Part shown: piece after piece, positions 1 through 14,285 of the stretch
How the letters are laid out: every line of letters begins with the position of its first letter
Numbering within the stretch: the stretch's first letter is position 1
From: a virus
Lineage: Duplodnaviria > Heunggongvirae > Uroviricota > Caudoviricetes
Direction: 5' to 3' (one strand)
IMG/VR virus record: IMGVR_UViG_2728369554_000020
Length of the DNA: 20,232 nucleotides
Position numbers and translations under genes: made by a program
Notes under the pieces: generated by a model
Seen by the model: only the letters and a program-made list of their open reading frames with translations
Told to the model about the DNA's origin: nothing
Databases searched by the model: none

Positions 1-282
1 TCATTTACTGGTATGAGTTCTGCATCGGGCTATTTCATTCCGGGCCTTACTGTCACCGCGACAGATACAACGCACCGTGTCTCCGGTCAGCGTGGTAATG
101 TAAGCCTCATCCTCTTTTTCTACCGAAATACATGGAATATCCCAGCCCCGGCAATACTCAATTTTTGCTGCCAAGTGAGTGTCACGCGGATAGAACTCCA
201 GACGATACATATCCCCCAGGACATGCACTTCCTCAACCTGACGGCCATCTTTAGTTACCGTTATTTTTTTCAGTGCGTACAT
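1..282 (-). CDS. hypothetical protein (93 aa) downstream of the endolysin
   Basis: ATG at 282 preceded by GGAGG (288-292) with 5-nt spacer; stop TGA at 3..1. No TM segment or lipobox seen, so not an obvious spanin. The track ORF starts further upstream at 360 but that extension overlaps the endolysin 3' end. Confidence 0.45.
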   Translation of the reverse strand: MYALKKITVTKDGRQVEEVHVLGDMYRLEFYPRDTHLAAKIEYCRGWDIPCISVEKEDEAYITTLTGDTVRCICRGDSKARNEIARCRTHTSK

Positions 283-312
283 ACGTACCTCCGTTCTTTC
301 GTTTTTTGAGTA

Positions 313-337
313 ATAAAAAAGGCCGCCACAGCGACCT
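313..337 (-). terminator. candidate intrinsic terminator after the endolysin gene
   Basis: Minus-strand RNA GGUCGC-UGUG-GCGGCC (6-bp stem with one G-U pair) followed by UUUUUU, between endolysin stop (350) and next start (282). Confidence 0.4.
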
Positions 338-349
338 TTGCCAGTACGT

Positions 350-895
350 TTACAAACCAACGCGCGCTTTCATCCAGCCATAGACAAACGACTCATTGGC
401 CTCGCGTTTCTCTGCCAGCTCCAGATAACGCTCGCCCTGCGTACAGTTCAGGGCTTTCACCAGTACCAGTTCACCATCCCTGCTGCGATTTTTCAGATAT
501 GCCCGTAACGCATTAAGAGTACGCGGCCCGATGCGTCCATCTGCATCCATATCCGGATAGAGTTTCCCGCGCAGGTTGAAAACGTTCAGCCAGCGTTGAA
601 GCATTCTGGACGCCACAGTTGGCCCCATGTTCACGCCCGTATCGCACAACTCTGAGGCAATATCCGGAGACAGGTTCGCAACCAGGTCGAATCGTGGTCC
701 GTACCAGTAGTCCGCCTCGAGTATTTCCAGCGCCTGCTCACGCGTCAGGTCACGCATATCGCCATGATAACCGTGTGCGCGGGCAACTTTTTCAGTAATG
801 CCCCATCTGGTCGGTCCACCTTTATCATCCGGATGATTGATGTAACCGCCCTCTTTTCCCAGAATTTCGTCAAAAATTTCATCTTTCGACTTCAT
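350..895 (-). CDS. endolysin, glycoside hydrolase family 108-like with C-terminal peptidoglycan-binding region
   Basis: N-terminal GGYINHPDDKGGPTRWGIT signature typical of GH108 lysozymes; ATG at 895 lies 1 nt after the TGA (899..897) of the upstream membrane protein gene (coupled). Alternative start at 916. Confidence 0.85.
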   Translation of the reverse strand: MKSKDEIFDEILGKEGGYINHPDDKGGPTRWGITEKVARAHGYHGDMRDLTREQALEILEADYWYGPRFDLVANLSPDIASELCDTGVNMGPTVASRMLQRWLNVFNLRGKLYPDMDADGRIGPRTLNALRAYLKNRSRDGELVLVKALNCTQGERYLELAEKREANESFVYGWMKARVGL

Positions 896-896
896 A

Positions 897-1175
897 TCAG
901 CGCCTTCGTAATACAAGGATTTTTGATACGTTCCCGCGTGCTCGTATCACCAGCACGCAGAACACCAGGTTAATCAGGACAACCAGCCAGTTACCTGGTG
1001 GGAAGCGACCACACAGATAACAAAGCGGTGCAAAAGCATAAAGCAGCATCAACAGCCAGGCCAGCCACGACATCAGCGGTTTATATCTCGACTCACCGCG
1101 ACGATAAAAAAAGAGCGTCAGCACGATAACCGAGCTTAACACCACATTCAGTAATCCGGGAAGGTTACTTAACAT
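897..1175 (-). CDS. small membrane protein with three hydrophobic segments, putative holin/antiholin
   Basis: ATG at 1175 preceded by GGAGG (5-nt spacer); 92 aa with three hydrophobic stretches and a basic C-terminus (RRR); sits immediately upstream of the endolysin. Confidence 0.55.
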   Translation of the reverse strand: MLSNLPGLLNVVLSSVIVLTLFFYRRGESRYKPLMSWLAWLLMLLYAFAPLCYLCGRFPPGNWLVVLINLVFCVLVIRARGNVSKILVLRRR

Positions 1176-1554
1176 TACCGCCTCCACCCCGCAGACGGGA
1201 GAACAGCCCGGATACCAGCGATGCGATATCCTGCTGGTGGATGAATGAGAGAATCTTCACCGACACCACCGATACCAGTACCGCGCAAAGCGCGTCGAGA
1301 GATGTGCTGTGGAGATTCAGTTTTTCGACCAGGTAAGACGCCATCACATCCGCCCCCAGTACGCCAACAATGAACGACACCAGAAAATGCGCTGCCACAC
1401 GCCAGACAGAAATCTTCTGTGGTATCGTGGCCACAAACAGCGCCCCTGCGAATGCGCCAAACACAATCCCGAAATTCGTTCCGGTAAACAGTCCAAATAT
1501 CGTCGCCCCGCCGAGTGCCGCAGCCGTGCCGGAACCGGATAAGGGTTCAGACAT
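1165..1554 (-). CDS. glycine-rich multi-TM membrane protein, putative holin
   Basis: ATG at 1554 preceded by AGGAG (9-nt spacer); 129 aa with several hydrophobic Gly/Ala-rich segments; first gene of the lysis cluster. The track ORF extension to 1971 has no RBS and crosses two terminators. Confidence 0.6.
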   Translation of the reverse strand: MSEPLSGSGTAAALGGATIFGLFTGTNFGIVFGAFAGALFVATIPQKISVWRVAAHFLVSFIVGVLGADVMASYLVEKLNLHSTSLDALCAVLVSVVSVKILSFIHQQDIASLVSGLFSRLRGGGGNVK

Positions 1555-1570
1555 ACTTTTTCTCCTGTAA

Positions 1571-1594
1571 ATAAAAAAGGGCCTCTGTCGGCCC
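1571..1594 (-). terminator. intrinsic terminator about 20 nt upstream of the lysis cassette
   Basis: Minus-strand hairpin GGGCCGACAGAGGCCC followed by TTTTTTATTT. Confidence 0.5.
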
Positions 1595-1721
1595 GTAAAA
1601 AAACACCCCGTCAAAGGCACCCGCAGATACCTTTTGTGTGGTGTTATCTGGTGTTTTCTGATGTGATGTGTACAGGACACAGATGTGAAAAAGGTCCGCC
1701 GGTACGAACCCTGTGCATGGA

Positions 1722-1749
1722 TAAAAAAAATGCCCGTCAGGAGACGGGC
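1722..1749 (-). terminator. intrinsic terminator (second of a tandem pair upstream of the lysis genes)
   Basis: Minus-strand hairpin GCCCGTCTCCTGACGGGC followed by TTTTTTTT. Confidence 0.5.
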
Positions 1750-1802
1750 TAAAACATTCATCATGCAAGAGTTAAGCAGGATTACTTGTATCGAATTATC
1801 GG

Positions 1803-1881
1803 TATCAGAATGAGTCGTCAACCTGCAACCGCAATTCTGACGAATCGTAGGCCCCGGTACAGGCGACGACTCATTCTGATA
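1803..1881. repeat. 17-bp perfect inverted repeat (TATCAGAATGAGTCGTC / GACGACTCATTCTGATA) with 45-bp spacer
   Basis: Arms at 1803-1819 and 1865-1881 are exact reverse complements; the spacer holds a partial third copy (AATTCTGACGAATCG). Confidence 0.8.
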
Positions 1882-2031
1882 ACGCATACCATTAACAATG
1901 TAAAAAACACAGCACTGAAACTGTAACCGCCGGCCAGGCATTACAGAATGAAGAAAATAAAGTGTCCGCAACCAGATTCTTCACGAAAATTCGCCAGTGC
2001 TGATAATAAAGCTATGACTCATCAGTTTTAC

Positions 2032-2107
2032 TGGAGAGCGGTGGCGGGAATCGAACCCGCATCATCAGCCTGGAAAGCTGAGGTAATAGCCATTATACGA
2101 TACCCGC
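2032..2107 (-). tRNA. tRNA-Gly(UCC)-like element, probably degenerate at the 3' acceptor strand
   Basis: Hand fold of the minus strand: acceptor 5' GCGGGTA, 3-bp D stem, anticodon stem TCAGC/GCTGA with loop TTTCCAG (anticodon UCC), T arm GCGGG-TTCGATT-CCCGC; the following CACCGCTCTCCA does not pair canonically with the 5' acceptor strand. The 5' ~65 nt closely match my recollection of E. coli glyT. Confidence 0.5.
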
Positions 2108-2324
2108 ATACTGTACTGGCTTCCGGAATCACACGAATTACCAGGAAAGCCAGCACTGGTCCTTCAGACGGTAGTAACGCCCCTGTGAACACAAAAATAA
2201 CCGTCTTCCGGACCAGTCAGAATACTAACGACAGTTTTTCAGACATCAAAAATATATTTGGTGTTCAGTTTTAAATATGTGTATACATCTGTATCAGAAA
2301 TATACAACTTATATCATCACTGAA

Positions 2325-3371
2325 TTAAAAATCTTTCGTTATTTCTCTGACCGTCTGATTAAAACGTTCCTCTTCCAGTTCCACGCCAATCGCCCTGCGT
2401 TCCAGCGACAGTGCTGCTTTTATTGTCGACCCCGACCCCATAAAAAAATCTGCGACCAAATCGCCTGGACGGCTGCTGGCAGTAATTATCTGACGCAACA
2501 TATCCGCCGGTTTTTCACAGGGATGTTTGCCCGGATAATACTGCACGGGCTTGTGCGTCCAGACATCCGTATAAGGAACGACAGCCGATACGGAAAAATA
2601 ACGCCGCAGTGATTTGTATTCCTCCAGCAGGCTGGCATATTGCCGGTTCAGTTCGCTGTATGTGCTGACCAGCTGGTGGTGTGGCTGCTCCAGTTCACCG
2701 CGCTGGTGTTTTTCTGCCGCCACACGTGCAAACAGCGCCTGCAGTTTACTGTAATCGGCCTCATTCGGTAACTGCCACTGACTGGTACCAAACCAGTGCG
2801 AAGCCATGTTTTTCTTTCCGGTGGCTTCTGCTATCTGTTTTGACGTTATCCCCAGTGATTCACGCGCATCACGGAAGTAAGAAATCAGCGGGGCCATCAC
2901 GTGCTGTTTAAGCTCGTGCCCCTTTGCCGCATAGCCGTCATTTTTTGGCTGGTATGGCCCCTGATAATGTTCAGCAAACAGAATGCGCTCTGTTGCCGGG
3001 AAATATGCCCGTAAACTTTCCTTATTGCACCCGTTCCAGCGTCCGGACGGCTTCGCCCAGATAATGTGGTTCAACACATTAAAACGTTCACGCATCATGA
3101 GTTCAATATCTGATGCCAGTCGATGGCCACAGAACAGGTAGAGACTTCCGGCAGGTTTCAGTACCCGCCAGAACTGCGCCAGACACTGAGCCAGCCATTT
3201 CAGGTAATCATCGTCCCCCTTCCACTGGTTATCCCAGCCCTCGGGCTTCACTTTAAAGTATGGCGGGTCTGTGACTATCAAATCGACAGAGTTTTCCGGT
3301 AAGGTCCGGATAAATTCCAGGCAATCAGCGTTGATTAACTCACAACTGGATATTTTTACAGTATTAGCCAT
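2325..3371 (-). CDS. DNA methyltransferase (N6-adenine/N4-cytosine type, beta-class motif order)
   Basis: 348 aa; DPPY motif (LIVTDPPYF) near the N-terminus and FxGxG (DFFMGSGST) near the C-terminus; no adjacent restriction endonuclease ORF. Confidence 0.85.
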   Translation of the reverse strand: MANTVKISSCELINADCLEFIRTLPENSVDLIVTDPPYFKVKPEGWDNQWKGDDDYLKWLAQCLAQFWRVLKPAGSLYLFCGHRLASDIELMMRERFNVLNHIIWAKPSGRWNGCNKESLRAYFPATERILFAEHYQGPYQPKNDGYAAKGHELKQHVMAPLISYFRDARESLGITSKQIAEATGKKNMASHWFGTSQWQLPNEADYSKLQALFARVAAEKHQRGELEQPHHQLVSTYSELNRQYASLLEEYKSLRRYFSVSAVVPYTDVWTHKPVQYYPGKHPCEKPADMLRQIITASSRPGDLVADFFMGSGSTIKAALSLERRAIGVELEEERFNQTVREITKDF

Positions 3372-3469
3372 AGATCAGTAAGCACTTCTCTGATAGGCTC
3401 ATACCGCTTTTGCGCAAAGCAGATGGCTGGCAGGTGCCGCTAACACCCACCAGCCGCCCATTACCACAA

Positions 3470-3496
3470 ATAAAAAAGCCTTCACTGCGGAAGGCG
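3470..3496 (-). terminator. intrinsic terminator at the end of the small winged-helix gene
   Basis: Minus-strand hairpin GCCTTCCGCAGTGAAGGC followed by TTTTTTATTT, overlapping the stop codon at 3482-3484. Confidence 0.45.
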
Positions 3497-3679
3497 TCTG
3501 TAACAACCGAACTGATAATCTGCCAGACCCGCCATAACAAGCTGGGTCAGTATTAACTGGCAGCGTTCGCGTGAAAGGTAAGTATTCTGCGCAATTTCCC
3601 CGACGGTCGCCGGTTCGGTGACGCTTAATTCATTAAACACCACTCTGGCGGTTTCGGTCATATCCTGCTGTTTTAGCAT
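3482..3679 (-). CDS. small winged-helix-like protein (65 aa), putative DNA-binding regulator
   Basis: ATG at 3679 with AAGGA about 10 nt upstream; segment PATVGEIAQNTYLSRERCQLILTQLVMAGL resembles a winged HTH. The track ORF start at 3772 has no RBS. Confidence 0.45.
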   Translation of the reverse strand: MLKQQDMTETARVVFNELSVTEPATVGEIAQNTYLSRERCQLILTQLVMAGLADYQFGCYRRLPQ

Positions 3680-3800
3680 GTCTTTTTTCCTTTTCTGGTT
3701 AACGTGACATACCAATAACTCTTGTCCAAAAAGCCAGCAAGCTGAAAGACCAGTATTAATAACCACCAGCACATTTAACGCACTGCGCTACTTTGCGGGC

Positions 3801-3827
3801 ACAAAAAACCCGCTCAGAGGCGGGTTC
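3801..3827 (-). terminator. intrinsic terminator downstream of the CPBP gene
   Basis: Minus-strand hairpin AACCCGCCTCTGAGCGGGTT followed by TTTTTTGT. Confidence 0.5.
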
Positions 3828-3965
3828 AGGCTATGAGGTGAAATAACCACTCTTAAAAGCATACATGATTTTTTACGTACGTAAATGCTTTGCCGTGCAT
3901 ATTTCTCATGCAAATGTCACATCCTGTTATTTTTCAGTGTTATAAATTTAAAGCCATAGAAAAAA

Positions 3966-4784
3966 TCAATTATGTTTTAAGAATGGATAGGTAAAGAATA
4001 ACAAGTGACACAGATTCAGACCAAAATGGAAAAGGGTTGCCACCCACAAGCGCCCACTCCACATCCATGACAATCCATACACAACACCAGATAACGTGGC
4101 AAATAATACAAGTAAAGCACCACCTGAATAGTGAAAAAAACCAAACAACAAAGACGCCACAATTAACGCAATCAATGGAGACGTTACTTCTGATAGCCGT
4201 GATTGAATATACCCTCTAAATAATGATTCCTCTGCCAGAGACACAAAAAACAAATTAGCCAATATAAACTCTGGCAACCACTCAGGAAAATGAATCTCTG
4301 GTTTTAACCCACCAAAAAAAACAGCCAAAAACAGGATAAGAGGAACAGAGAGCAACAGAGCCCCCCATTTCCACAAAGACACTTCTGATTTCACTTCTTT
4401 TTTAAACAAAGAAGCTGTACACAGGACTAACAAAAATGGCACCAGCGCTTTATCAAAATTAAAATACATTGTATAGGGAGTGCTTTGAGGTCCGACAGTA
4501 ACAGACTTTAGCACTACAGGATTGTGAAACCCTGGCCATAAATGGAAAGATAATGCTATGGCTGATAAAACTATGCCAGCTTCATATATGGATTTAGCCC
4601 AGGCGTTATATTTCCAGTTGAACTTCAAAATAATAAAAAAAACGATTGTAGAAACAAAAAACAACACAGGCCAATCAATAATATCATTAAGCATAGCCAG
4701 GACAACAGACACCGTTAACAATGAAAAAGCCACTACCTTATGCCAACTGAGAGTTGACAGTGCCAGTGCTAACACAATCCACAT
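3966..4784 (-). CDS. CPBP-family intramembrane metalloprotease (Abi / CAAX-protease-like)
   Basis: 272 aa multi-TM protein with EExxxR (EESLFRG), FxxxH (FGFFH) and HxxxN (HFGLN) motifs in the expected order; ATG at 4784 preceded by AAGGAG; clearly AT-rich relative to flanking phage genes. Confidence 0.8.
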   Translation of the reverse strand: MWIVLALALSTLSWHKVVAFSLLTVSVVLAMLNDIIDWPVLFFVSTIVFFIILKFNWKYNAWAKSIYEAGIVLSAIALSFHLWPGFHNPVVLKSVTVGPQSTPYTMYFNFDKALVPFLLVLCTASLFKKEVKSEVSLWKWGALLLSVPLILFLAVFFGGLKPEIHFPEWLPEFILANLFFVSLAEESLFRGYIQSRLSEVTSPLIALIVASLLFGFFHYSGGALLVLFATLSGVVYGLSWMWSGRLWVATLFHFGLNLCHLLFFTYPFLKHN

Positions 4785-4815
4785 AAACACTCCTTTTATT
4801 TAATGATGAAGCTTG

Positions 4816-4844
4816 ATTATCAATATTTTCAATTCACCTGACAA
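4816..4844 (-). promoter_or_regulatory. candidate sigma70 promoter between Q and the CPBP gene (possible late promoter pR' analogue)
   Basis: Minus-strand TTGTCA (4844..4839), 17-nt spacer, GATAAT (4821..4816); about 30 nt upstream of the CPBP start. Confidence 0.3.
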
Positions 4845-4936
4845 CATTTTGTTTACTTTCCATGGGATTTACGATCACAAAAAATAAACACATTGATTAT
4901 AAACACAGAAAACATAACCATAGTCACTATATATCC

Positions 4937-5311
4937 CTACCGCATATCCATATCTAACCTAACATTCAGAGCCATAAGCATTCCTTCAATAATACCTTCC
5001 GCTTTATAAAGTCTTTTACCAATAAACCCATCAGAACATCTATGCTTACGTGCAAGAGCCATAAATGTCATTCCACCTACGTAATAATCCACCAACAAAT
5101 CGTGCAAATACTGATTATTCTTGTTTAATCGTGCCATACAGCCACAAATTATCATGGCGTCATCATCAGAACACTGAGGACGTGATTTCACTTTAGTCGG
5201 GATTAATCCTTTAAAACCAGCAGCTATCGAGGGCCATGTTACATCTTCATGATTATTTGCTGCCCATGCTCCCCACCGCTCCATAACCAGCTGAATATCA
5301 CGCAACATCAT
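4937..5311 (-). CDS. late-gene antitermination protein Q (phage 82 / QuuD-like family)
   Basis: 124 aa; N-terminal [23 protein letters not shown] and central [14 protein letters not shown] match my recollection of the Q82/QuuD family; lies upstream of the late/lysis region and overlaps the end of rusA. Confidence 0.75.
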
Positions 5312-5675
5312 TACATCCTCTTATTACGAATATATTCACACCCAGTCGCCCACCGCAAACAGGCAAACCACGCACAATATTGATTTCATCAAACTGCTCG
5401 TCGTCTATGAGTAATCCGGCATGGGTCAGTGCATCCAGTGGTGCTTTCAGGATATTGTCCAGGTCACGACGGCGCTTATCCGGTGGCTCTGCAATAATCT
5501 TTATCGCCAGCCTTCCGGACAGGTTTAATTTCAGCCGCTGCTGGCGAACAATTAGCGCCACATCACGGCGATAACGCTCACCGACTTTTGATACAAAATA
5601 TGTGCTGCCACGACGTCGCCAGTAGGTGTTCACCGTTGGCGGGTAAGGCAAAACAAATTCTATGCGTTCAGTCAT
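5298..5675 (-). CDS. rusA: RusA-family Holliday junction resolvase
   Basis: 125 aa; [15 protein letters not shown]-terminus and acidic core [16 protein letters not shown] typical of RusA; ATG at 5675 directly follows the DUF968 gene stop. Confidence 0.85.
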
Positions 5676-6734
5676 TCATGCTTTCCACTTCAGGACACCC
5701 GAATTTCTCGCGTGCATTAAAAAACGAATCAGCAACAACAGCTGGCTGCCGTGTTTTTCTTCAAAATCTTTTACCCCGGCGTGTAGTTCGTTATGGCATT
5801 TACGGCACAGCGGAATAACAAACAAATCGTCAGCCTTTGTCCCCATTCCTCCCAGTCCATGACCAATGATGTGATGCGGATCATCTGCCTGAGCGCCACA
5901 CGTCATGCATTTCTGCGTTTTTACCCAGCGCGTGTATACGGGCATCTCTTCCCGTTGTGGTTTCTGGCGCTGGAGATACTGAGCAGGTGCCTCCGGATCA
6001 ACGGCGATGCTTACTACCGCCTTTTCCTGTGGTGGGGTTTGTTGCTGGTGGGTGTGAGGCAACGGCACAAGATTTTTTGTGCGCTGCTTCAATATGCTGG
6101 TTGCGGTCTGCTCTCCCGGTACGATGTCGCTTTCGCGGTAAACCGAGCGGATTTTTTCCGCACGCAACCCCAGAGAACGACGTAATACTGCCTCCGGTAG
6201 CGCGTCCGCCACCTGATTGCAGACCGCCCACCAGGATAATTCAGCCAGCGATAATTCCCGTTCCTGTGTACCGTTCATTGCATGACGTATGACGTCAATC
6301 ATCCAGGCTGTCAGATTTTGTTGAGCAAGCTGCCCGAGTGATTCGGATGTCTGGTCACGCAGCTGGTTGTCGCAGTGCCAGCACAACACCATTGCGCCGG
6401 TACCGTAACGATGTATGACGATTTCACTGTGATGATAGTCACCATGAGGCCACTGGCAGGATTTGACATGACGCAACAGCCAGTCAGACAGTGCCCCAGC
6501 GCCGCCAGCAGCACGAATCACCCGCTCATCGCTGAAAAATGGCAGTAATGATTTATCCTCCGCCAGCGGCTGGCGAACGGCAGGGACGACTCCGGATGGC
6601 AGGCCGCACATGCTTTTCGGTTCCGGCTCCACCAGCACTCGAGGATTGTGAAATACCTGCATGGATTCACGACCTGGCTTAAGGACCACCAGCCCGAGTT
6701 CCGGTACCAGAACAGGTCGAAGTAATACCCGCAC
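5676..6734 (-). CDS. DUF968-like protein with C-terminal Cys/His zinc-binding motif (YdfU-like)
   Basis: GTG start at 6734 with GGAGG 4 nt upstream; C-terminal CMTCGAQADDPHHIIGHGLGG...LCRKCHNELH motif. Confidence 0.7.
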   Translation of the reverse strand: MRVLLRPVLVPELGLVVLKPGRESMQVFHNPRVLVEPEPKSMCGLPSGVVPAVRQPLAEDKSLLPFFSDERVIRAAGGAGALSDWLLRHVKSCQWPHGDYHHSEIVIHRYGTGAMVLCWHCDNQLRDQTSESLGQLAQQNLTAWMIDVIRHAMNGTQERELSLAELSWWAVCNQVADALPEAVLRRSLGLRAEKIRSVYRESDIVPGEQTATSILKQRTKNLVPLPHTHQQQTPPQEKAVVSIAVDPEAPAQYLQRQKPQREEMPVYTRWVKTQKCMTCGAQADDPHHIIGHGLGGMGTKADDLFVIPLCRKCHNELHAGVKDFEEKHGSQLLLLIRFLMHARNSGVLKWKA

Positions 6735-6735
6735 G

Positions 6736-7008
6736 TTACCTCCAGATCCGTTGCTGGAATGTGCGGGACGGACGCGGTGGGCGTTCGGAGTAAGGAAGCC
6801 TGACGTAGATTATCCAGTGACGATAATCGAGGGTGAGGGCTTTCCTAAACTCATACCCGCGTCTGCGGTAGTTCTGAATCAGCCATTCGGCCTGTTCTTC
6901 AGTGCAGGGGTCATGCTGATACCAGTCATATTTGAATGTGTGAGAACGCCGCCCGTATCTGCTGGCAGGGGCGGCATCAGAATTGTTAATTTTCTTGTAA
7001 TGCACCAC
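6736..7008 (-). CDS. hypothetical phage protein (90 aa)
   Basis: GTG start at 7008 with GAGGA 7 nt upstream; stop TAA 1 nt before the DUF968 start (coupled). Confidence 0.45.
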   Translation of the reverse strand: MVHYKKINNSDAAPASRYGRRSHTFKYDWYQHDPCTEEQAEWLIQNYRRRGYEFRKALTLDYRHWIIYVRLPYSERPPRPSRTFQQRIWR

Positions 7009-7074
7009 TACTATCCTCGTAATGGTGCGACAGACGCCAGTTGTTCAGGCTGGCTTTAACTACAACATTATAAT

Positions 7075-7269
7075 CTAGTCTTTCTTAATGCTGAAGTGAC
7101 TGACCGAATCCGCATGCGATTCTTTGGTGATCAGAATAACATCGGATGGCAATGGCATTACGATAAACTCACCATTCTCAAGAACTATTACTTCATAATT
7201 ACCTGGTATAGAAAGCGCAGCAATTAATTCCTTATCGTTCATAACCAAAATCCCGTGAACTTTAAACAC
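7075..7269 (-). CDS. hypothetical small protein (64 aa; start uncertain)
   Basis: ORF with GTG at 7269 immediately after an AAGGGGAG motif, or ATG at 7242 with no RBS; no recognisable motif. Confidence 0.35.
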   Translation of the reverse strand: MFKVHGILVMNDKELIAALSIPGNYEVIVLENGEFIVMPLPSDVILITKESHADSVSHFSIKKD

Positions 7270-7400
7270 CTCCCCTTAAGGGGACCATCCTTATTCTCCC
7301 TGCGCGCCAATCAAGTAATGAGATTCTATTTCCCCCGTAATTAGCCTCAAGAACAACAAATCACAAAAACACAAAAAGCCTGTTTGATTAAAAATAATCG

Positions 7401-7427
7401 TAACAAAAAACCCGCCGAAGCGGGTTA
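7401..7427 (-). terminator. intrinsic terminator downstream of the hok-like gene
   Basis: Minus-strand hairpin AACCCGCTTCGGCGGGTT followed by TTTTTTGTTA. Confidence 0.5.
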
Positions 7428-7494
7428 AGTGCGGGTGCGTTGAGGATGCCTGACACATCAGAGGTGGCGAGGGATTTCTCCCCCGCCAGGTCTC

Positions 7495-7680
7495 TTACTC
7501 CTCAGATTCGTAAGCTGTGAAGACAGCGACCTCCGTCTGGCCGGTTCGGATTCGTACCTCGCAGAGGTCTTTCCTCGTTACCAGNNNNNNNNNNNNNNNN
7601 NNNNNNNNNNNNNNNNNNNNNNNNNNNNNNNNNNNNNNNNNNNNNNNNNNNGCGATTAACATCGCCTTTTGCTGCTTCAT
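7495..7680 (-). CDS. hok: Hok/Gef-family type I toxin, interrupted by a run of N
   Basis: N-terminal MKQQKAMLI and C-terminal LVTRKDLCEVRIRTGQTEVAVFTAYESEE flank the N run and match the Hok family as I recall it; ATG at 7680 with AAGGAG upstream. Confidence 0.6.
   Translation of the reverse strand: MKQQKAMLIXXXXXXXXXXXXXXXXXXXXXXXLVTRKDLCEVRIRTGQTEVAVFTAYESEE
7575..7651. other. run of 77 N (masked or unresolved sequence) inside the hok-like gene
   Basis: Literal n characters at 7575-7651. Confidence 1.
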
Positions 7681-8018
7681 AGCCTGCTTCTCCTTGCCTT
7701 TCGGCACGTAAGAGGCTAACCTACGTTTGTGTAGCATAGATTGGGCCTCAGATTAATGTTAAGCGTCTTGCCGGACGCGTAATGTTAACTGGGGCTTTTC
7801 TCTGTCTGCCTTACAGTGGCATGCCCGAGGCAGACAGCCTCAAGCACCCGCAACAATCTTACCGACACCGATAAGAAAACGCTATTTTTTATTGCCAGAA
7901 CCTTCTGCCCAGGCTAATGTATCCGCGTCAGAACGGCGCAATGCGCTCGCCTGAGATACGTTTACTTGTCATTGGTGGCAACAGATAACGGCAATTGTTG
8001 TTTCTGTTTGTTTCCTTC

Positions 8019-8052
8019 AAAAACCCCGGACCGTCAATCCGGGGTTTTTGTT
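8019..8052. terminator. bidirectional intrinsic terminator
   Basis: Hairpin CCCCGGA-ccgtcaa-TCCGGGG flanked by an A-run on one side and a T-run on the other; downstream of the 288-aa gene. Confidence 0.55.
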
Positions 8053-8134
8053 TGTTATCCCCAGCGGCAAATCGAATACACCACCAGCGCCACCGCCATT
8101 GCGATTCCTGCCGTTGTAAATGCCTCAGGCCAGG

Positions 8135-9001
8135 TCATCGTAAAACATCCTCCACACCAACCAGTCCGTTCTGCTTCAGATATTCCATCGCCTTATCAGG
8201 TAGATTGCTTGATTTATTGACGCTTTTTAACGAACTGGCTAATCGCTTAACCAACATTGTTAATTCGTTAACCTGTTTTCCGGATGCTTGTGGATTGTCA
8301 GTTTTACCAGAAGTGGCGGTACAGTCGGCGTTCCCACTCTTCTCCTCCTGCGACGGTTTTGCTGCAATCTGACTGGCATGTTTGTTAATGGTAACGATCA
8401 GCTCTTGCTCAGCCTCATCAAGACAATCACTGATACCTCGCCTGTCACCGTCAAAATCATCGAAATCGGCGCGAACCTTGGCAAACTTCAGGATTGCAGA
8501 CAACACCTCACCAGGAATTACCGGAGAGTTGGTTGACGTTTCCGAGATTTTCCGAAAATTATTGGTTGACGAATCCTTGTTTTCCCGAAAGCTTCCTGAC
8601 TGAAGCATGGCTTCGCGGCAATCGTTCCATCCTTCAGCATAATCACTATACGCAAGAGGCCAACCTCTTATGTATTCACGCGGCAACTTATCAGGCACTA
8701 CCAGCGCTGGCGATGCTGCATAAAGTGGTGTTATTTCTGCCCGAAAGTCACCTACTTTATGCAGTCGCACCCACCGTTTGGCTTCTGCTTTGTCAGAATA
8801 CATAGCGGTGAACGTATTATATTCATGGTCAATTTGCGTGAAGGTTGCCTTCCACGCCACCGGCTCAGCTTCCAGCGATGCCAGTGCAATTTTGAATAAC
8901 TCACCCTCTATCCGTGCCATCCCTGAATTGGGGTGACATTTCGTAATCGCTATTTTTAATTTGGCCTCTTCGATTAATTGTTCTTTGGTTAATTCAGCCA
9001 T
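8135..9001 (-). CDS. hypothetical protein (288 aa), uncharacterised
   Basis: Long ORF with ATG at 9001 and an in-frame stop just upstream; own upstream region of 131 bp with two hairpins; followed by the bidirectional terminator. No catalytic motif recognised. Confidence 0.6.
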   Translation of the reverse strand: MAELTKEQLIEEAKLKIAITKCHPNSGMARIEGELFKIALASLEAEPVAWKATFTQIDHEYNTFTAMYSDKAEAKRWVRLHKVGDFRAEITPLYAASPALVVPDKLPREYIRGWPLAYSDYAEGWNDCREAMLQSGSFRENKDSSTNNFRKISETSTNSPVIPGEVLSAILKFAKVRADFDDFDGDRRGISDCLDEAEQELIVTINKHASQIAAKPSQEEKSGNADCTATSGKTDNPQASGKQVNELTMLVKRLASSLKSVNKSSNLPDKAMEYLKQNGLVGVEDVLR

Positions 9002-9132
9002 TTTTCATTACCGCCCTTTCGGGCGGCCTCCTGATGTTTTGAGGGTGCAGAAATCCCTCCGGTTAAGGATTTAATAAAATTCACTTCTGATTTAAATTTT
9101 TCAGTGTTTTGTTGTCAGGTGGTTTATCGCCT

Positions 9133-9444
9133 TTATGCTTCAGCCTTATTTCTCAGCCATACACAAACAGGACCATCTTCAGTGTCATGAATGGAACCAA
9201 TGAACCAGCCTTCACCTTCCGGGCGCTCCGGTTTCCAGGAGGCAATATCGGGACCATCTGCGTCCAGATTAAAATCATCTTCATCCATAGTTCTGATGGT
9301 CCATTGAAGATTATTTTCCTCCATCCATGCGTTAAACTCTTCCGTTGAAATATGTTCTCTACCATCACAGAAATTTTCATATTCAGGATGCGTCCAGCAG
9401 CCATATGCATCACGTTCTACCGGCGTTTCTTTGATTTCGTTCAT
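9133..9444 (-). CDS. strongly acidic small protein (103 aa), uncharacterised
   Basis: ATG at 9444 with GGAG about 9 nt upstream; hand count 26 D/E versus 8 K/R, several Trp. Confidence 0.6.
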   Translation of the reverse strand: MNEIKETPVERDAYGCWTHPEYENFCDGREHISTEEFNAWMEENNLQWTIRTMDEDDFNLDADGPDIASWKPERPEGEGWFIGSIHDTEDGPVCVWLRNKAEA

Positions 9445-9457
9445 AACATTAACTCCA

Positions 9458-9640
9458 TTAAAATAATGAAAAACAAATTAACCACACCACTACAACCGAT
9501 GCTATTAACACCCTGATTGCAAACAGTGGACTGATATGTCGAAAAGGATTTTCCCAGATAATAAAAGCCGCTGCCAGAAATGCACTGATCAGGAATACAA
9601 TAACAAACAGCTCAATTTTGATTATCCAGAACATATTCAC
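9458..9640 (-). CDS. small hydrophobic membrane protein (about 60 aa)
   Basis: Two hydrophobic stretches; GTG at 9640 overlaps the upstream stop (TAGTG), alternative ATG at 9634. Confidence 0.4.
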   Translation of the reverse strand: MNMFWIIKIELFVIVFLISAFLAAAFIIWENPFRHISPLFAIRVLIASVVVVWLICFSLF

Positions 9641-9933
9641 TACATCGCCTTCTGTAAAATAACCGCATGCCCCAGCTTCTCCGCCAGTGCCAGTTCTGCC
9701 TTAGCACCTGCCGACCGCTGCCAGCCATTCAGCATATAAATCGCATCCACGCAACGTATCATCGCCATGCAGATATCCATGTACTGCAACTGAGTCAGGC
9801 CGTCCGGAAGTACTGCCGGATTTAAGACTGTGTGCCCCTCCCGTTTCAGTTCCTCTTCTGCCTTGTGGAACGCCTCACGGTTGAAATTTTTATACCCGGT
9901 CATAGGACCGGCGATATAAACCCTCACCCTCAC
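9640..9933 (-). CDS. nucleoside 2-deoxyribosyltransferase-like (DUF4406-like) protein
   Basis: GTG start at 9933 with AGGAGG 7 nt upstream; N-terminal VYIAGPMTG motif typical of that fold. Confidence 0.6.
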   Translation of the reverse strand: MRVRVYIAGPMTGYKNFNREAFHKAEEELKREGHTVLNPAVLPDGLTQLQYMDICMAMIRCVDAIYMLNGWQRSAGAKAELALAEKLGHAVILQKAM

Positions 9934-10322
9934 TCCATCACCTCCTGAAAATTACCCCGATAGAACGCCAGTACACGTTGCATTGATTCGCTGTTACGGC
10001 ATTCCCGACAAATTATGTTCATGTCTCTGTCGTAGCGACGGATTTCACCATCAGGTAACTTCCGGACCAGTGCCGGGTCAGCTTTCTTCGGAGTTTTACA
10101 CCACGCCTGATACGCCTGTTCTGATACAAAAACACCGTATTTACCGGATATGTACAAATCACCACAAGCAACCACATCCACAAGACAACGTCTGACCGTA
10201 TGCCAACCCGCCCCCGTTGCCCTCTCCAGTTGCGACATCGTCATGCGTTTGTTCCTGTGTACCAGCCCGATAATTCGTGCCTTCAGTTCTTCCCGCTGTT
10301 CAGGTGTAAAAACGCTTGCCAT
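9930..10322 (-). CDS. hypothetical phage protein (130 aa), possible HTH
   Basis: ATG at 10322 with AGGAGG upstream; segment MSQLERATGAGWHTVRRCL looks HTH-like. Confidence 0.55.
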   Translation of the reverse strand: MASVFTPEQREELKARIIGLVHRNKRMTMSQLERATGAGWHTVRRCLVDVVACGDLYISGKYGVFVSEQAYQAWCKTPKKADPALVRKLPDGEIRRYDRDMNIICRECRNSESMQRVLAFYRGNFQEVME

Positions 10323-10336
10323 GAGTCCTCCTGAAA

Positions 10337-11083
10337 TTACTTCACAACCCTTAAATGACTGACATTTGAACGCCAGCTCTCCCAGTTAAAATTCACCCAG
10401 CGACCACCGTTCATGGTCATGCGGTCCATCACGCGCTCACCAAGCAGCGTATTCATTGCCGTATGGTTCAGGTTCGTCAGCATCCCGACGCTGTGCATCG
10501 AGGCTGTTCTGCGATCGACTATCTGGTTCAGTGTGACCTGTTCGTTACGCGTATCCCGCTGCATACCAATTTCATCCAGGACAAGCAGGTCAACTTCACA
10601 CAACCCCTGCAAAAATTTTTCGCCCGAGTTTTTGTTGTCGTAGTTGCCGTGTAACGCCAGCATCACATCCGCCACCGTCACCACAATCACGCTGCGACCT
10701 TTCGCCAGAAGATGGTTGCCAATGGCTGCTGCCAGATGATTCTTTCCGGTACCCGGCTTACCGCTGAACACGAAATTTGTGCATCCGGTCATCATTTCTT
10801 CCGCGATGGATTTTGCCTGGCTCAGCGCGTGGCGTTGGCCATCGTTCTTCACCTGGTAATTCGCAAACGAACACTTCTGGTGCAACAGTTGGATACCGGA
10901 ACGCTTCATAATTTTCTCCACCCGGATCTGGCGATTCTGGCGGTTAATTTCCTCACTACGCTTTCGCCCTTCTGCAAGCTGCCACTCTCGCCACTCGTCC
11001 ACTGTCCGGTACGGCGCGGTTACATGCTGCGGGGCCAGCTTACGGATGCGTTCAAGAACACCACCTGCCGCAATATTTTTCAT
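10337..11083 (-). CDS. DnaC-like helicase loader (AAA+ ATPase)
   Basis: 248 aa; Walker A GKPGTGKNHLAAA and Walker B LLVLDEIG; follows the initiator gene. Confidence 0.85.
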   Translation of the reverse strand: MKNIAAGGVLERIRKLAPQHVTAPYRTVDEWREWQLAEGRKRSEEINRQNRQIRVEKIMKRSGIQLLHQKCSFANYQVKNDGQRHALSQAKSIAEEMMTGCTNFVFSGKPGTGKNHLAAAIGNHLLAKGRSVIVVTVADVMLALHGNYDNKNSGEKFLQGLCEVDLLVLDEIGMQRDTRNEQVTLNQIVDRRTASMHSVGMLTNLNHTAMNTLLGERVMDRMTMNGGRWVNFNWESWRSNVSHLRVVK

Positions 11084-11089
11084 AACCCG

Positions 11090-12199
11090 TTACCCCCTGA
11101 ATCCCGGCGGAATTTCGGTGTCCGGTTCAGAAATGTGATTCACACAACGCTGGTTGTTCGTGCCGCTTACCGGGAGCAACCAGGGGTTTTCAAAATTCCG
11201 GTCCGGTCCAAAAAACGTCGTCGCTCGCTGAACAAATTCCGTTCCCGCTTTCCCGGTAGCAGCCAGGTATCTTGTGTAACGCCTCACACCATCCAGCATG
11301 GCCTCTGGTGGCACCCCCTCGCGCAATCTGGCCTTCCAGGCACTGAATGCGGATTTCTTCGGGTTTGCCCCGGCACGCAACGGGTATTCCCGCCAGACCT
11401 GTTCGAACACATCCGGATAATCCACTCGTCCCACAGGCCGCCCGGTGTTTTCCGGGACTACCCGATCGGCTTCCCGCTGAATGGCGGAATCGGCTTCAGG
11501 CTGCTGCAGTTGGTGTGATTGCTCCGACCCTGCGGTCATCGCCTGCTGCACAGCGCCCGAATCGGCTTTCAGCGCATACGCCGAATCGGCTTCCGGTGTC
11601 GTGCCTGCTGGCTGACCAGAATTTACGGTCTGAACATCCCCTGCCTGGTTCATGGTGTTTTTTTCGCCATGAACCATAGTGTTTTTGTCCTGTTCCTGTT
11701 CTTTCTCCTGCTCCTGTTCTTGGCTTCGAAGCCCCTTAAAAGCCCCTTCGAAGCCCCTTACCGAATTTCGGCTATTATTCCGCCTCACATCCAGATGGAA
11801 ATCCGTTTTATATCTGTCGTAAAACGCTGACAGAAAAGCGTTTTCAGGTAATGATGCATACTCATTCCTGACACCTGCACAACGGTTATCGCCGGGCTTC
11901 AACGTTTCCCCAACCTGCCAGGCTGCCATTTCATGGACCCAGACCATCTCTGCATCATGGTCATAGCTACAAAAACCAGCTTCAACAGCCCTTTTAAGCC
12001 CCTTTGAAGCCCCTTCCAGACCAAGCCCGGTTTCATGAGCAAGGTATAAAACTGGCAGGTAATACAAACCCAGCATATTTGCGTGAGGGGATGTCATCAG
12101 GTAAAAAGCAACAACTTGCGCTTCTGCACCCGCCTTTCTAAGTTCTCTCCCCGTTTCTCCCAGCCAGAATCGCGGAGAAACTTTTGCGTAATCACGCAT
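11090..12199 (-). CDS. replication initiator / replisome organiser (lambda O analogue, YdaU-like)
   Basis: ATG at 12199 preceded by GAGGT; the track start at 12310 has no RBS. Central acidic Q/E-rich linker and repeated EADSA segments; gene contains iteron-like DNA repeats. Confidence 0.7.
   Translation of the reverse strand: MRDYAKVSPRFWLGETGRELRKAGAEAQVVAFYLMTSPHANMLGLYYLPVLYLAHETGLGLEGASKGLKRAVEAGFCSYDHDAEMVWVHEMAAWQVGETLKPGDNRCAGVRNEYASLPENAFLSAFYDRYKTDFHLDVRRNNSRNSVRGFEGAFKGLRSQEQEQEKEQEQDKNTMVHGEKNTMNQAGDVQTVNSGQPAGTTPEADSAYALKADSGAVQQAMTAGSEQSHQLQQPEADSAIQREADRVVPENTGRPVGRVDYPDVFEQVWREYPLRAGANPKKSAFSAWKARLREGVPPEAMLDGVRRYTRYLAATGKAGTEFVQRATTFFGPDRNFENPWLLPVSGTNNQRCVNHISEPDTEIPPGFRG
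11727..11759. repeat. three tandem 11-bp iteron-like repeats (cgAAGCCCCTT / aaAAGCCCCTT / cgAAGCCCCTT)
   Basis: Core AAGCCCCTT at 11729, 11740 and 11751. Confidence 0.8.
11987..12015. repeat. second cluster of the same 11-bp period repeat (AGCCCTTTT / AAGCCCCTT / AAGCCCCTT)
   Basis: Copies at about 11987, 11996 and 12007, roughly 250 bp from the first cluster, inside the same gene. Confidence 0.75.
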
Positions 12200-12277
12200 G
12201 GCTACCTCATCTGGTGCCGAACCTTCCTCCGGATATAATCTGTGGTTCCCAATCGACAGAACCAGAGGAGGTTCGAC

Positions 12278-12733
12278 ATGTATTTTTTGAAAAGCCTTTA
12301 TCAGGCTCATGTATTAAATGTTGCAGCAACAAACCGCTGGTGTAACAGCCCCGAAATGCTCCCGGATTACAGAGCCTGGCTGCGCGCCGAAACATACCTT
12401 CGTCTCGACATATTGATTAGCGAACTTCAAAAAGAGACTGCATCCATTCATAACCTTCAGGGTATCGACGCTGTTCGCATTCTGGTATCGCGCCATAGTG
12501 CTCTCTCAATAATTGAAGTGCGTCATCTCTCTTTTTCTGAACTGATTTTCTTGCTTCAACCAGCTCTGGAATCAGCGAATATCCCACAGGAAGTGATCCA
12601 ATACCCACCTCATGTTGACGAGCAGTTACAAGATGTGCCATACAACCAGCGTGCTGGATTGACTCCCTGCTCAGAGGCTGAATGGGATCACTCTCTGCTG
12701 AAGAAATACCAAGATTTGTATAATCCTCAATAA
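12278..12733 (+). CDS. alternative antisense ORF (151 aa) with strong RBS
   Basis: ATG at 12278 preceded by GGAGG (12266-12270) with 7-nt spacer; overlaps the minus-strand ORF for 317 nt. Hand-counted GC by codon position is about 63/32/40%. Confidence 0.3.
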   Translation: MYFLKSLYQAHVLNVAATNRWCNSPEMLPDYRAWLRAETYLRLDILISELQKETASIHNLQGIDAVRILVSRHSALSIIEVRHLSFSELIFLLQPALESANIPQEVIQYPPHVDEQLQDVPYNQRAGLTPCSEAEWDHSLLKKYQDLYNPQ

Positions 12734-12926
12734 GCCCGGCACACGCTTCTGCATCAGCCAGCTTTATTCTGGTTTCCTTGCGCTGTTCTCTGGCTGACAA
12801 ACGCCAGAGCAGCGCATTAGCTTTATGTATCAACCACTCTGCCAGCTCCACATCAGATAAACCGCCACGCCAGATGTGCGGACTGTTTTCGTAAACGCTC
12901 AGTGTCAATTTTTTGTCATTACTCAT
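12417..12926 (-). CDS. hypothetical protein (about 170 aa) between the YdaT-like and initiator genes
   Basis: Co-oriented with the operon; ATG at 12926 ten nt after the upstream stop; weak RBS. In the overlap with the plus-strand ORF its frame has G at codon position 1 in about 35% of codons (hand count). Confidence 0.45.
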   Translation of the reverse strand: MSNDKKLTLSVYENSPHIWRGGLSDVELAEWLIHKANALLWRLSAREQRKETRIKLADAEACAGLIEDYTNLGISSAESDPIQPLSRESIQHAGCMAHLVTARQHEVGIGSLPVGYSLIPELVEARKSVQKKRDDALQLLREHYGAIPECEQRRYPEGYEWMQSLFEVR

Positions 12927-12939
12927 ATTTATTACCCAA

Positions 12940-13365
12940 TTAATGCACAGCCAGAGTGTTTCCTGCCGGGCCACCACGATTCATCTGGTTGAAACCAGCA
13001 ATCGCCACTGCGACAAAATCATCAGCGTCTCTCACCAGTCGTTCCCGCGTCTCCACCAGTTCCCGAAACCAGGCTGAACTGTGGCTGCGCATTCGGGCCA
13101 CCAGCAGAGGTGGCATTGCTTTTTCGATCGCTGGTAACAACGCCTGAATTTTTTCAACAGCATCAGGGGTGTCTTTCTCTACCCAGCGGAAAATTTTCTG
13201 GGTATTACGAGCCAGGGCTTCCGGATGGCTGTCGTCATACAGTTCAGGGAACGTCATACCCAATTCGAAATACGCTTTGGTAATTTTCGCAGCCGGTACT
13301 TTTTCGCCGTCCGGATGCGCCCAGGCATTCATCGCCATGCGGATGTGTTCATGCCTGATTTTCAT
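12940..13365 (-). CDS. YdaT-like protein (141 aa) in the cII-equivalent position
   Basis: ATG at 13365 with GGAG 8 nt upstream; N-terminal MKIRHEHI resembles my recollection of Rac YdaT; overlaps the Cro-like gene end. Confidence 0.6.
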   Translation of the reverse strand: MKIRHEHIRMAMNAWAHPDGEKVPAAKITKAYFELGMTFPELYDDSHPEALARNTQKIFRWVEKDTPDAVEKIQALLPAIEKAMPPLLVARMRSHSSAWFRELVETRERLVRDADDFVAVAIAGFNQMNRGGPAGNTLAVH

Positions 13366-13624
13366 GAATCAACTCCGGTTCATCTTGTGTGTTAGCCTTA
13401 CATCCAACAGATAAACCGTCGGTTGGATCCGGGTATAAATCCGGCCGTAATTCATGAGGAGTCACCCCAGTTGCAAGGTAAATTTGACGGACCCGTTCCC
13501 CTGTCGGCACCCGTCCATTGTATTCATTTGCCCATTTGTGTATTTGAGACGGCCAGGCCCCTATCGCGCGCCCTAGTGGGCGAATACCACCGGCAATCTT
13601 TATTGCTTTGTCCAAAGCAGTCAT
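13349..13624 (-). CDS. Cro-like HTH regulator (YdaS/DicC-like)
   Basis: ATG at 13624 with GGAGG 5 nt upstream; 91 aa; divergent from the repressor gene. Confidence 0.65.
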   Translation of the reverse strand: MTALDKAIKIAGGIRPLGRAIGAWPSQIHKWANEYNGRVPTGERVRQIYLATGVTPHELRPDLYPDPTDGLSVGCKANTQDEPELIHENQA

Positions 13625-13654
13625 ACAACCTCCACGTCAATTAAACACAACAAT

Positions 13655-13673
13655 TGTTCACCAAAAAAGAACA
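13655..13673. promoter_or_regulatory. operator-like palindrome TGTTC-N9-GAACA in the repressor/cro intergenic region
   Basis: TGTTC at 13655-13659 and GAACA at 13669-13673; a second partial site GTTCAcTGAAC lies at 13702-13712. Confidence 0.45.
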
Positions 13674-13727
13674 TAAGTCAACACCCTGAGGAATTGTTAG
13701 TGTTCACTGAACGGTTATAATTGCCAA

Positions 13728-14117
13728 ATGGATATGAGAAAAAAGCAATACGACACCCCGCTGGCGGAGAGATTAGATGCGATCTCGCAACAGCATCATT
13801 TAAGCGGTTCAGATTTAGCGCGCATCGCTGGAGTGGGCCGTTCGTCAGTTAATGCCTGGAAAAAGAGAGGGACAATCAGCAAAGATTCCGCGGCCAAAAT
13901 AGCGGAAGCCACAAATGTTTCCCTTTCCTGGCTACTGACGGGAAAGGAGGATACGAGCAGGGAAGTGCTTGATGATGATGAGAAAGCCCTGCTTGACGTT
14001 TACAGAAACCTACCTCCTGTAGAACGCAGAAATATGCTTGCAGCTTTTCAAATGCGACTTCAAAAATTGACTGAATTTTACTCGGAATACGTTGATCCGA
14101 TAACACGTCAAAAATAA
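13728..14117 (+). CDS. prophage repressor (DicA/cI-like, XRE-family HTH)
   Basis: 129 aa; N-terminal HTH (SGSDLARIAGVGRSSVNAWKKRG); no SD; TATAAT at 13716-13721 only 6 nt before the ATG. Confidence 0.8.
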   Translation: MDMRKKQYDTPLAERLDAISQQHHLSGSDLARIAGVGRSSVNAWKKRGTISKDSAAKIAEATNVSLSWLLTGKEDTSREVLDDDEKALLDVYRNLPPVERRNMLAAFQMRLQKLTEFYSEYVDPITRQK

Positions 14118-14137
14118 TTCTTTATTTTACAAAATCA

Positions 14138-14163
14138 TACCGCCGGAAGGCGGTTTTTTTTTA
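14138..14163 (+). terminator. intrinsic terminator after the repressor gene
   Basis: Hairpin ACCGCCGGAAGGCGGT followed by a run of 9 T. Confidence 0.6.
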
Positions 14164-14182
14164 CCTTTATGGATTCATTGTG

Positions 14183-14211: not shown

Positions 14212-14285
14212 GTATTCCATCAAAGCACAGCGGTGCGACAGGTCTTAGTTCCGCTACCCCGGCGTTAAGGGGAAATGAGGTCAAC

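Follow-up and report, generated by a model that had tools for sequence, protein, structure and literature searches.

A CPBP-family intramembrane protease gene in the cargo slot that separates the antiterminator gene Q from the putative late promoter pR' of Escherichia coli prophages

In this study we analyzed a gene for an intramembrane protease of the CPBP family that lies in a stretch of Caudoviricetes DNA of 20,232 nucleotides (nt) (IMG/VR record IMGVR_UViG_2728369554_000020), the whole of which is called the window here. The gene follows the antiterminator gene Q on the minus strand. We consider it probable that it encodes an accessory inner-membrane protease placed in a slot between Q and the target of Q, the late promoter pR', with the regulation and function proposed below; we infer the steps of the regulation with moderate and those of the function with weak support. 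In the lysogen the gene would be transcribed from a sigma-70 promoter of its own (4844-4816), and the transcript would cross pR' and end at the terminator of the late leader. After induction it would also be transcribed as the last part of the early transcript, antiterminated by N, from which Q is made. The gene would stand outside the Q-dependent late operon and be independent of Q antitermination. Both the gene and its assignment to the family have been publicly annotated before and are hence already known. The contribution of this work is the regulatory anatomy, namely a cargo slot that precedes pR', a terminator that belongs to the late operon and an old and fixed pairing of Q with the CPBP gene.

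The features of the region are, in the order of transcription:

4937-5311, minus strand: Q antiterminator gene of the Q21/Q933W family (PF06530), 122-124 amino acids (aa), Pfam E=8e-51
4816-4844, minus strand: candidate sigma-70 promoter of the CPBP gene, TTGTCA (4844-4839), 17-nt spacer, GATAAT (4821-4816)
4795-4790, minus strand: Shine-Dalgarno sequence AAGGAG of the CPBP gene, 5 nt ahead of the ATG at 4784, read from the sequence
3966-4784, minus strand: CPBP gene (Rce1-like intramembrane glutamic endopeptidase), 272 aa
3844-3885, minus strand: pR' homologue, -35 TTTACG (3885-3880), 16-nt spacer, -10 TATGCT (3863-3858)
3801-3827, minus strand: late-operon leader terminator, hairpin and T-run, at about +25 to +49 relative to the predicted pR' start

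The CPBP gene and its product

The longest open reading frame (ORF) of the gene runs from 3966 to 4790 on the minus strand and begins with GTG in the ORF listing, while the ATG at 4784 gives a product of 272 aa. The same start is used in the annotation of the Prokaryotic Genome Annotation Pipeline (PGAP), and DNA of E. coli BCE049 that is identical to the CPBP gene of the window encodes WP_050940011.1 (PGAP). An earlier note on this DNA had given the same frame, product size and strand and had placed all its features on the minus strand, which was borne out. It had also read the motifs EExxxR, FxxxH and HxxxN in the protein and had assigned it to the CPBP/Abi family. The motifs are present as EESLFR at residue 185, FGFFH at 214 and HFGLN at 253 (EExxxR, FxxxH and HxxxN/D). 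In the profile search the protein matched Pfam PF02517 (Rce1-like) with E=1.4e-19 and 70.6 bits against a gathering threshold of 22.4, and positions 3-92 of the 93 profile positions were covered. Among 40 aligned homologues E185, E186, R190, F214, H218, H253 and N257 are invariant. A second invariant set, which is specific to the subfamily, was found in the N-terminal half and comprises H81, G85, N88, N109, D111 and K112.

The protein has a polytopic alpha-helical membrane fold like that of solved CPBP members. This likeness came from fold comparison only: a profile search of the PDB sequences with the CPBP family alignment returned no significant relative, and the sequence identity to Rce1 of Methanococcus maripaludis (4CAD) and to SpdC/LyrA of Staphylococcus aureus (6U0O) is just 15-18%. 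By profile, motifs and fold the product is a CPBP/Abi-family intramembrane protease, whereby proteolysis itself is predicted, and the family assignment of the earlier note stands.

Other members of the CPBP or type II CAAX protease family are MroQ, the myxosortases and the lactobacillal Abi immunity proteins. None of the NCBIfam equivalog cut-offs was reached by the CPBP protein (best score 45.9 bits, cut-off 435). It stays far below the cut-off for MroQ (17.2 vs 270 bits) and scores 35 bits against a cut-off of 250 for the myxosortase MrtP. Thus it falls into none of the named subfamilies, which are MroQ, the myxosortases MrtP, MrtC, MrtX, MrtZ, MrtS and MrtJ and the fusions of an ABC permease with CPBP. 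The N-terminal half with its own invariant residues sets the protein apart from the known family members.

The gene could be a neutral passenger or a decaying remnant without current function, as no phenotype is known and its PHROG family carries no functional assignment. However, between the alleles of the window and of E. coli O157:H7 Sakai we counted 18 synonymous and 13 non-synonymous differences, which corresponds to a ratio of non-synonymous to synonymous rates (dN/dS) of 0.21. Moreover, the catalytic motifs are invariant, the gene is of full length in 572 genomes, and no frameshift or motif loss was seen among the alleles examined here. We regard this explanation as very improbable; the CPBP gene is maintained under purifying selection with its catalytic motifs intact.

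Predicted position of the late promoter pR'

For the Shiga toxin (Stx) phages of strain Sakai, Sy et al. determined the pR' start by differential RNA sequencing and an RNA 3' end 258 nt downstream by Term-seq (PMC7547250). The Q protein of the window is 78-81% identical in aa sequence to the Q proteins of Sakai Sp5, a Stx2a phage, and of H-19B. In Sakai Sp5 (locus L007) the T-run of the second terminator ends at 1003, and an RNA of 258 nt would begin at 741-747. This putative start lies directly 3' of TTTACG (712-717), 16 nt and TATCAT (734-739). The placement was derived from the length of 258 nt; the coordinates in PMC7547250 are offset from NC_002695.2.

The pR' block of the window and the TTTACG-16-TATCAT of Sakai Sp5 match with the same spacing. 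The consensus of this Q family is TTTACG-N2-CGTAAA-N8-TATxxT-N2-TAAGAGTGGTTA. In the window the spacer carries the invariant CGTAAA, the start is predicted at A3851, and the conserved initial transcribed block AGAGTGGTTA follows. The window holds a single match, 81 nt 3' of the CPBP stop codon, and none of 100 shuffled sequences matched. Of the fetched loci, the ten that cover the stretch from Q to pR' in this Q group have one copy of the block each, and the other 96 have none. In 434B/DLP12 (L006), where a close Q is followed by nmpC/IS5, it was not matched in the stretch fetched. In an alignment of seven sequences the -35 element, the CGTAAA of the spacer, the T-A-T---T of the -10 element and AGTGGTTA of the initial transcribed region are invariant, and all seven have a hairpin with T-run 3' of the block. 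A literature search with the literal block sequence returned nothing relevant.

The pR' homologue is predicted to fall between the CPBP stop codon and the hairpin, and the CPBP gene would lie upstream of the late promoter. Owing to the pR' homologue at 3844-3885 we place the gene between Q and pR' and outside the interval from pR' to the lysis genes, which is the place of stx-type cargo. Therefore its position is not stx-like, i.e. not downstream of pR' and the terminator of pR'. The earlier note had put the gene into the Q-to-lysis interval as the classic site of morons; with the pR' homologue 3' of the gene, it would not lie in the part of that interval that runs from pR' to the lysis genes. 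Studies of late-gene or Stx-type regulation with this Q family should place pR' at TTTACG...AAGAGTGGTTA and not at the first promoter-like site after Q.

The segment 'GATCGTAAA' just after Q had raised the suspicion that the -35 element and the spacer of pR' were duplicated when CPBP was inserted. This was rejected: the local alignment is no better than chance, with a score of 18 compared to 14.5 +/- 2.2 that 50 of 500 shuffles reach, and the segment is not conserved in Sakai.

The locus of EC12 (L002, about 3060-3190 on the minus strand) has an extra TTGACC-18-TATATT site and a hairpin with T-run directly after Q. It also keeps the TTTACG block after an ORF6N-domain gene and so possesses two candidate pairs of pR' and terminator.

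The hairpin downstream of pR'

The hairpin at 3801-3827 consists of the stem GAACCCGC/GCGGGUUU (3827-3806) with a U-run to 3803 and is found in the minimum-free-energy fold. The consensus terminator scan missed it, probably because the stem extends into the T-run and shortens the tail. Two loci without CPBP and with an unrelated Q, a 273-aa 'antitermination protein' in L003 and a DUF1133 protein in L004, have a hairpin and T-run at the same position. They share the downstream module of the window with the 65-aa ORF and the methyltransferase gene; their stem sequences differ from that of the window, and the homology to the window starts at the T-run. Stx phages have a hairpin with T-run at the corresponding position, too. 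Since it is found at the same position in CPBP-less prophages with other Q types, the hairpin is the leader terminator of the late operon and not part of an insert.

The hairpins of Sakai Sp5 (L007 770-796) and H-19B (L005 2985-3012) are strong and lie with their T-runs at about +25 to +50 of the pR' transcript.

Between the CPBP stop codon (3966) and the pR' block (3885) there is no other hairpin with T-run, and the one at 3801-3827 is predicted to be also the first terminator that CPBP transcripts reach. The next terminator-like site of the window beyond it was found at 3495-3478. An own terminator brought along with the insert, which characterizes morons according to Juhala and Hendrix, is lacking in the CPBP gene. 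The hairpin and T-run described in the earlier note are thus a real structure but not the terminator of CPBP, as they are kept in CPBP-less prophages. Likewise, the self-contained unit of promoter, gene and terminator does not persist, because the terminator belongs to the late operon and pR' intervenes.

A cargo slot and an old pairing of Q and CPBP

A search of 5,426 complete E. coli genomes yielded 572 that match the Q-to-CPBP segment over at least 80% of its length, and all 572 carry CPBP. The only other matches show 84-87% identity over most of Q. In three such loci that were inspected the slot is occupied by an ORF6N-domain gene (L002 2145-2708, L008 3157-3717, L009 3171-3731), Q is 81% identical, and the pR' block follows. 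The order Q-CPBP-pR' was also found in Shigella flexneri (L015) and in a further E. coli locus (L016), with CPBP 58-61% and Q 78-80% identical to the window. In Stx phages the slot is empty; their Q proteins have a C-terminal extension of 20 aa that is absent from the Q of the window, and the longer Q overlaps the -35 element. The interval from Q to pR' serves as a cargo slot with alternative fillings (none in Stx phages, otherwise CPBP or an ORF6N gene), and genes in this slot would escape the control by Q. The pairing of Q and CPBP is old and fixed and represents a conserved slot, not a sporadic insert.

The earlier note had regarded CPBP as a foreign AT-rich gene just after Q. Its counts of G+C (21/60 in 4081-4140 and 35/60 in 6001-6060) are exact, and the coding sequence has 38.5% G+C compared to 47.6% for the window. 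However, the low-G+C stretch of about 3600-5300 comprises Q (40.5% G+C, 35% at third codon positions) as well as CPBP and the pR' region and not CPBP alone. Together with the invariable presence of CPBP in the lineage, this speaks against a variable insert within that lineage. The same gene in all related prophages, combined with a host-like composition, had been named as evidence that would refute the proposal; the presence was confirmed, but the composition is not host-like.

These results also bear on the explanation as a recent, self-contained moron with promoter, gene and own terminator in the Q-to-lysis interval, which would serve immunity or abortive infection with the partner located elsewhere. 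The promoter-like site and the hairpin do bracket CPBP on the same strand, and the low G+C content of the gene is in line with it. But the hairpin occurs in relatives without CPBP, pR' lies between gene and hairpin, the low-G+C island takes in Q, and CPBP is never missing from prophages with this Q allele in the genomes searched. Hence, we consider a recent moron unlikely. CPBP shares with the lysogen-expressed lambdoid morons bor and lom and with stx cargo that it is accessory, of atypical composition and close to Q. Whereas stx and most cargo of the late region are located downstream of pR'-tR' and depend on Q, CPBP precedes pR' and lacks an own terminator.

Promoter and expression of the CPBP gene

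The TTGTCA-17-GATAAT site is the best sigma-70 match in 1900-5400 (10/12), and the start of transcription is predicted near 4807-4812. The -10 element GATAAT is conserved in Sakai Sp4. Diverged CPBP alleles have promoter-like sites of their own upstream, e.g. TTGACA-19-TATAAT in L015. The only expression data found for a lysogen come from Affymetrix arrays of EDL933, wild type and rpoS mutant, sampled uninduced in early stationary phase (PMC2907692). There the CPBP gene was apparently strongly expressed in the absence of induction, about as strongly as bor. If correct, this expression fits a promoter belonging to the gene itself. As judged from these findings the CPBP gene probably has its own promoter.

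The same site might instead be pR', with the hairpin as tR', and CPBP would then lie inside the constitutive leader at the position of the lambda 6S RNA or StxS. The site is found about 95-120 nt past the Q stop codon, which is the usual place of pR', and since pR' is constitutive and its transcripts end at tR' in lysogens (PMC7547250), this would agree with high expression in the uninduced state. However, the homologue of the pR' mapped in phages with 78-81% identical Q proteins is located after CPBP and is invariant in ten loci. Moreover, the alignment of the window with Sakai is most variable around 4816-4866, where the -35 elements differ, and the upstream regions of L015 and L016 share no conserved block with the site at 4816-4844. 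It is quite unlikely that this site is pR', and we give equally little credit to the view that CPBP synthesis in lysogens is a side effect of the antitermination design.

No terminator-like site was found in the interval between Q and CPBP. Therefore, the early transcript of Q should continue into CPBP. This arrangement on the same strand would also suit a role in the lytic cycle, in which the protease is made together with Q from the early transcript and, ahead of lysis, processes a membrane protein of phage or host such as a holin, an antiholin, a spanin or a receptor or entry component. The linkage of Q and CPBP in 572 of 572 genomes, which has survived deep divergence, points in the same direction. 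Nevertheless, such a role appears doubtful to us.

Relatives outside phages

A search of 5.8 billion proteins revealed 370 CPBP homologues. Those outside E. coli are of full length with about 45-54% identity and come from Enterobacter, Salmonella, Citrobacter, Providencia, Dickeya, Pantoea, Hafnia, Serratia, Photorhabdus and others. In the set of species-representative genomes, 243 have a gene for a relative. The loci of the best 80 of these 243 have no Q gene nearby. In 39 of the 80, modF is adjacent, and 28 of the 39 also have modE and gpmA. The order modE-modF-CPBP-gpmA/galE was found in Providencia, Proteus, Photorhabdus, Xenorhabdus and Hafnia (L021, L022, L025, L026 and 39 of L027-L106). 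The other chromosomal contexts, e.g. in Enterobacter, Salmonella and Dickeya, are unrelated single-gene placements. In Hafnia the CPBP gene begins 6 nt past the modF stop codon, which suggests co-transcription.

The chromosomal orthologues have 270-276 aa, 45-54% identity to the prophage protein and the same invariant residues in both halves. Unlike the prophage gene they are resident, without phage neighbours and with host-like composition, as the G+C content of the gene equals that of the flanks at the species-representative loci. The prophage alleles are 56-65% identical to each other and at most 55% identical to any chromosomal copy. No conserved toxin, bacteriocin, peptide or regulator neighbour was found in the 80 loci and in eight contexts with gene calls. 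This pattern without a partner argues for a resident envelope function of other Enterobacterales that was captured long ago by a phage lineage, and against one half of a toxin-immunity pair; it points to a conserved envelope substrate rather than to a dedicated toxin-immunity pair. Besides, three Helicobacter species (L035, L055, L084) have full-length copies with 50-51% identity. For a protein that is otherwise enterobacterial this suggests horizontal transfer.

Proposed function

In the inner membrane, a glutamate- and histidine-dependent cleavage of a membrane-proximal peptide or protein by CPBP would alter the envelope of the lysogen. The most plausible benefit, which we put forward tentatively, would be a protection of the lysogen against a membrane-acting peptide toxin or a superinfecting phage.

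CPBP proteins confer bacteriocin self-immunity in Gram-positive bacteria, as Kjos et al. reportedly described in 2010, which favours the moron with an immunity function. However, a linkage to a bacteriocin or peptide toxin of the type of the Abi proteins PlnI and SkkI was found neither in the window nor beside the prophage alleles nor in the eight annotated chromosomal contexts. The earlier note was right that a partner gene is not in the window. The role in bacteriocin immunity or abortive infection that it had named for CPBP/Abi proteins found no backing in a PADLOC match or in a toxin neighbour at the 80 chromosomal loci.

Several points weigh against an accessory protease that is expressed in the lysogen from its own promoter and acts on the envelope. 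In PADLOC no family was matched by the CPBP protein at E<=0.1, the PHROG families 13291 and 26389 to which it belongs carry no functional assignment, and no substrate candidate or phenotype was found. As Q and CPBP are so strictly linked, the protease could instead act in the lytic cycle. Start and end of the CPBP transcript are predictions. A promoter match of equal quality arose on that strand in 7% of the shuffles of the 152-nt spacer between Q and CPBP, and in about 50% on either strand when the whole AT-rich segment was shuffled. The promoter of the earlier note is hence present and plausible, but for AT-rich DNA such a match appears only modestly above chance. In Sakai Sp4 the -35 element is weaker (TTGCCT). 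Finally, the Sakai Sp5 hairpin that is homologous to 3801-3827 is read through, and the RNA ends at +258 (PMC7547250). Since this mapped end lies beyond the homologous hairpin at about +25 to +50, the hairpin is possibly leaky; that of the Stx phages may be leaky or have another role in the region of Q loading.

The CPBP protein might be an uncatalogued defence factor of lysogenic conversion that cleaves a membrane component of an incoming phage or a peptide toxin, a speculative view that we hold to be rather unlikely. The cleaved part of the phage could be an ejection protein or a channel protein derived from the tape measure. Through its constant position between Q and pR' the gene would be expressed both in the lysogen and soon after induction. 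If true, such a factor would shape the susceptibility of enterohaemorrhagic E. coli (EHEC) to phages and bacteriocins, as almost every match among O157:H7, O55:H7, O111, O26, O103, O121 and O145 strains has CPBP.

Prevalence and existing annotation

The region of 1.17 kb is present in 572 of the 5,426 complete E. coli genomes, each time with CPBP in full length. With few exceptions the copies are single and lie on the chromosome, and in nearly all of the genomes PGAP annotates a 'CPBP family intramembrane glutamic endopeptidase' beside an 'antiterminator Q family protein'. Most matches are 90-95% identical and come from strains of the serotypes named above. No match to the CPBP gene was found in 50,697 phage genomes by megablast and tblastn; the element is known only as a prophage. 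The searchable literature on CPBP function contained no functional test of the copy of the window or of Sakai. The gene is found in about one tenth of the complete E. coli genomes including the major EHEC serotypes, and its expression from a cryptic prophage is apparently strong. It thus lends itself to phage and bacteriocin screening as an inexpensive and well-defined candidate. The current understanding is not overturned by it.

The counterpart in O157:H7 Sakai is ECs1085 of prophage Sp4, annotated as 'phage CAAX amino terminal protease family protein'. It is the same gene as CPBP of the window, with 13 of 272 residues different. Both share the order Q-CPBP-pR'-hairpin, and the DNA of the region is 94-96% identical. 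The downstream cargo differs: in Sakai Sp4 it comprises ECs1086, psrA (ECs1087, a regulator of the type III secretion system) and then tRNAs, with no methyltransferase annotated there, whereas the window has the 65-aa ORF, the DNA methyltransferase gene and one tRNA.

Q and the surrounding prophage

A phmmer search related Q to the Q21 structures 6P18 and 6JNX (E=1.3e-7). A classification of Q as a phage-82-type protein was rejected, as the Pfam match, the PDB search and the definition in bioRxiv 10.1101/651190, from which the name Q21/Q933W is taken, all lead to the Q21/Q933W family. Positions 1-6967 of the window are 99.4% identical to a prophage of E. coli BCE049, while 6968-20232 is a mosaic with patches of 84-96% identity to it. 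Prophages with different early regions have exchanged the late/Q module. The module that starts with the 65-aa ORF was found in 2,288 of the 5,426 E. coli genomes, where it follows Q genes of at least three unrelated types.

Further features of the window are:

7675-7849, minus strand: sok antisense RNA of a hok/sok-type toxin-antitoxin locus, Rfam RF01794, 116 bits
5676-6734, minus strand: DUF968 gene, first in the transcription order of the region
5298-5675, minus strand: RusA gene, between DUF968 and Q
3482-3679, minus strand: 65-aa hypothetical protein WP_000917767.1, phrog_331 (PHROG E=1.2e-37), function unknown
3495-3478, minus strand: terminator-like site after the 65-aa ORF, from the terminator scan
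2325-3371, minus strand: DNA methyltransferase gene, PF01555, PADLOC MTase_II (E=4.5e-153)
2037-2107, minus strand: tRNA, Rfam RF00005, 41.4 bits, annotated by PGAP as tRNA-Gly in the near-identical BCE049 prophage
350-1554, minus strand: two holin genes, then a GH108 endolysin gene, at the end of this order

ARAGORN reported no tRNA in the whole window, including the Rfam tRNA at 2037-2107. The methyltransferase gene lies past the late leader and ahead of the lysis genes, and a restriction partner is not in view. The sok RNA belongs to the early region of the prophage, and BCE049 has a Hok/Gef coding sequence at the corresponding place.

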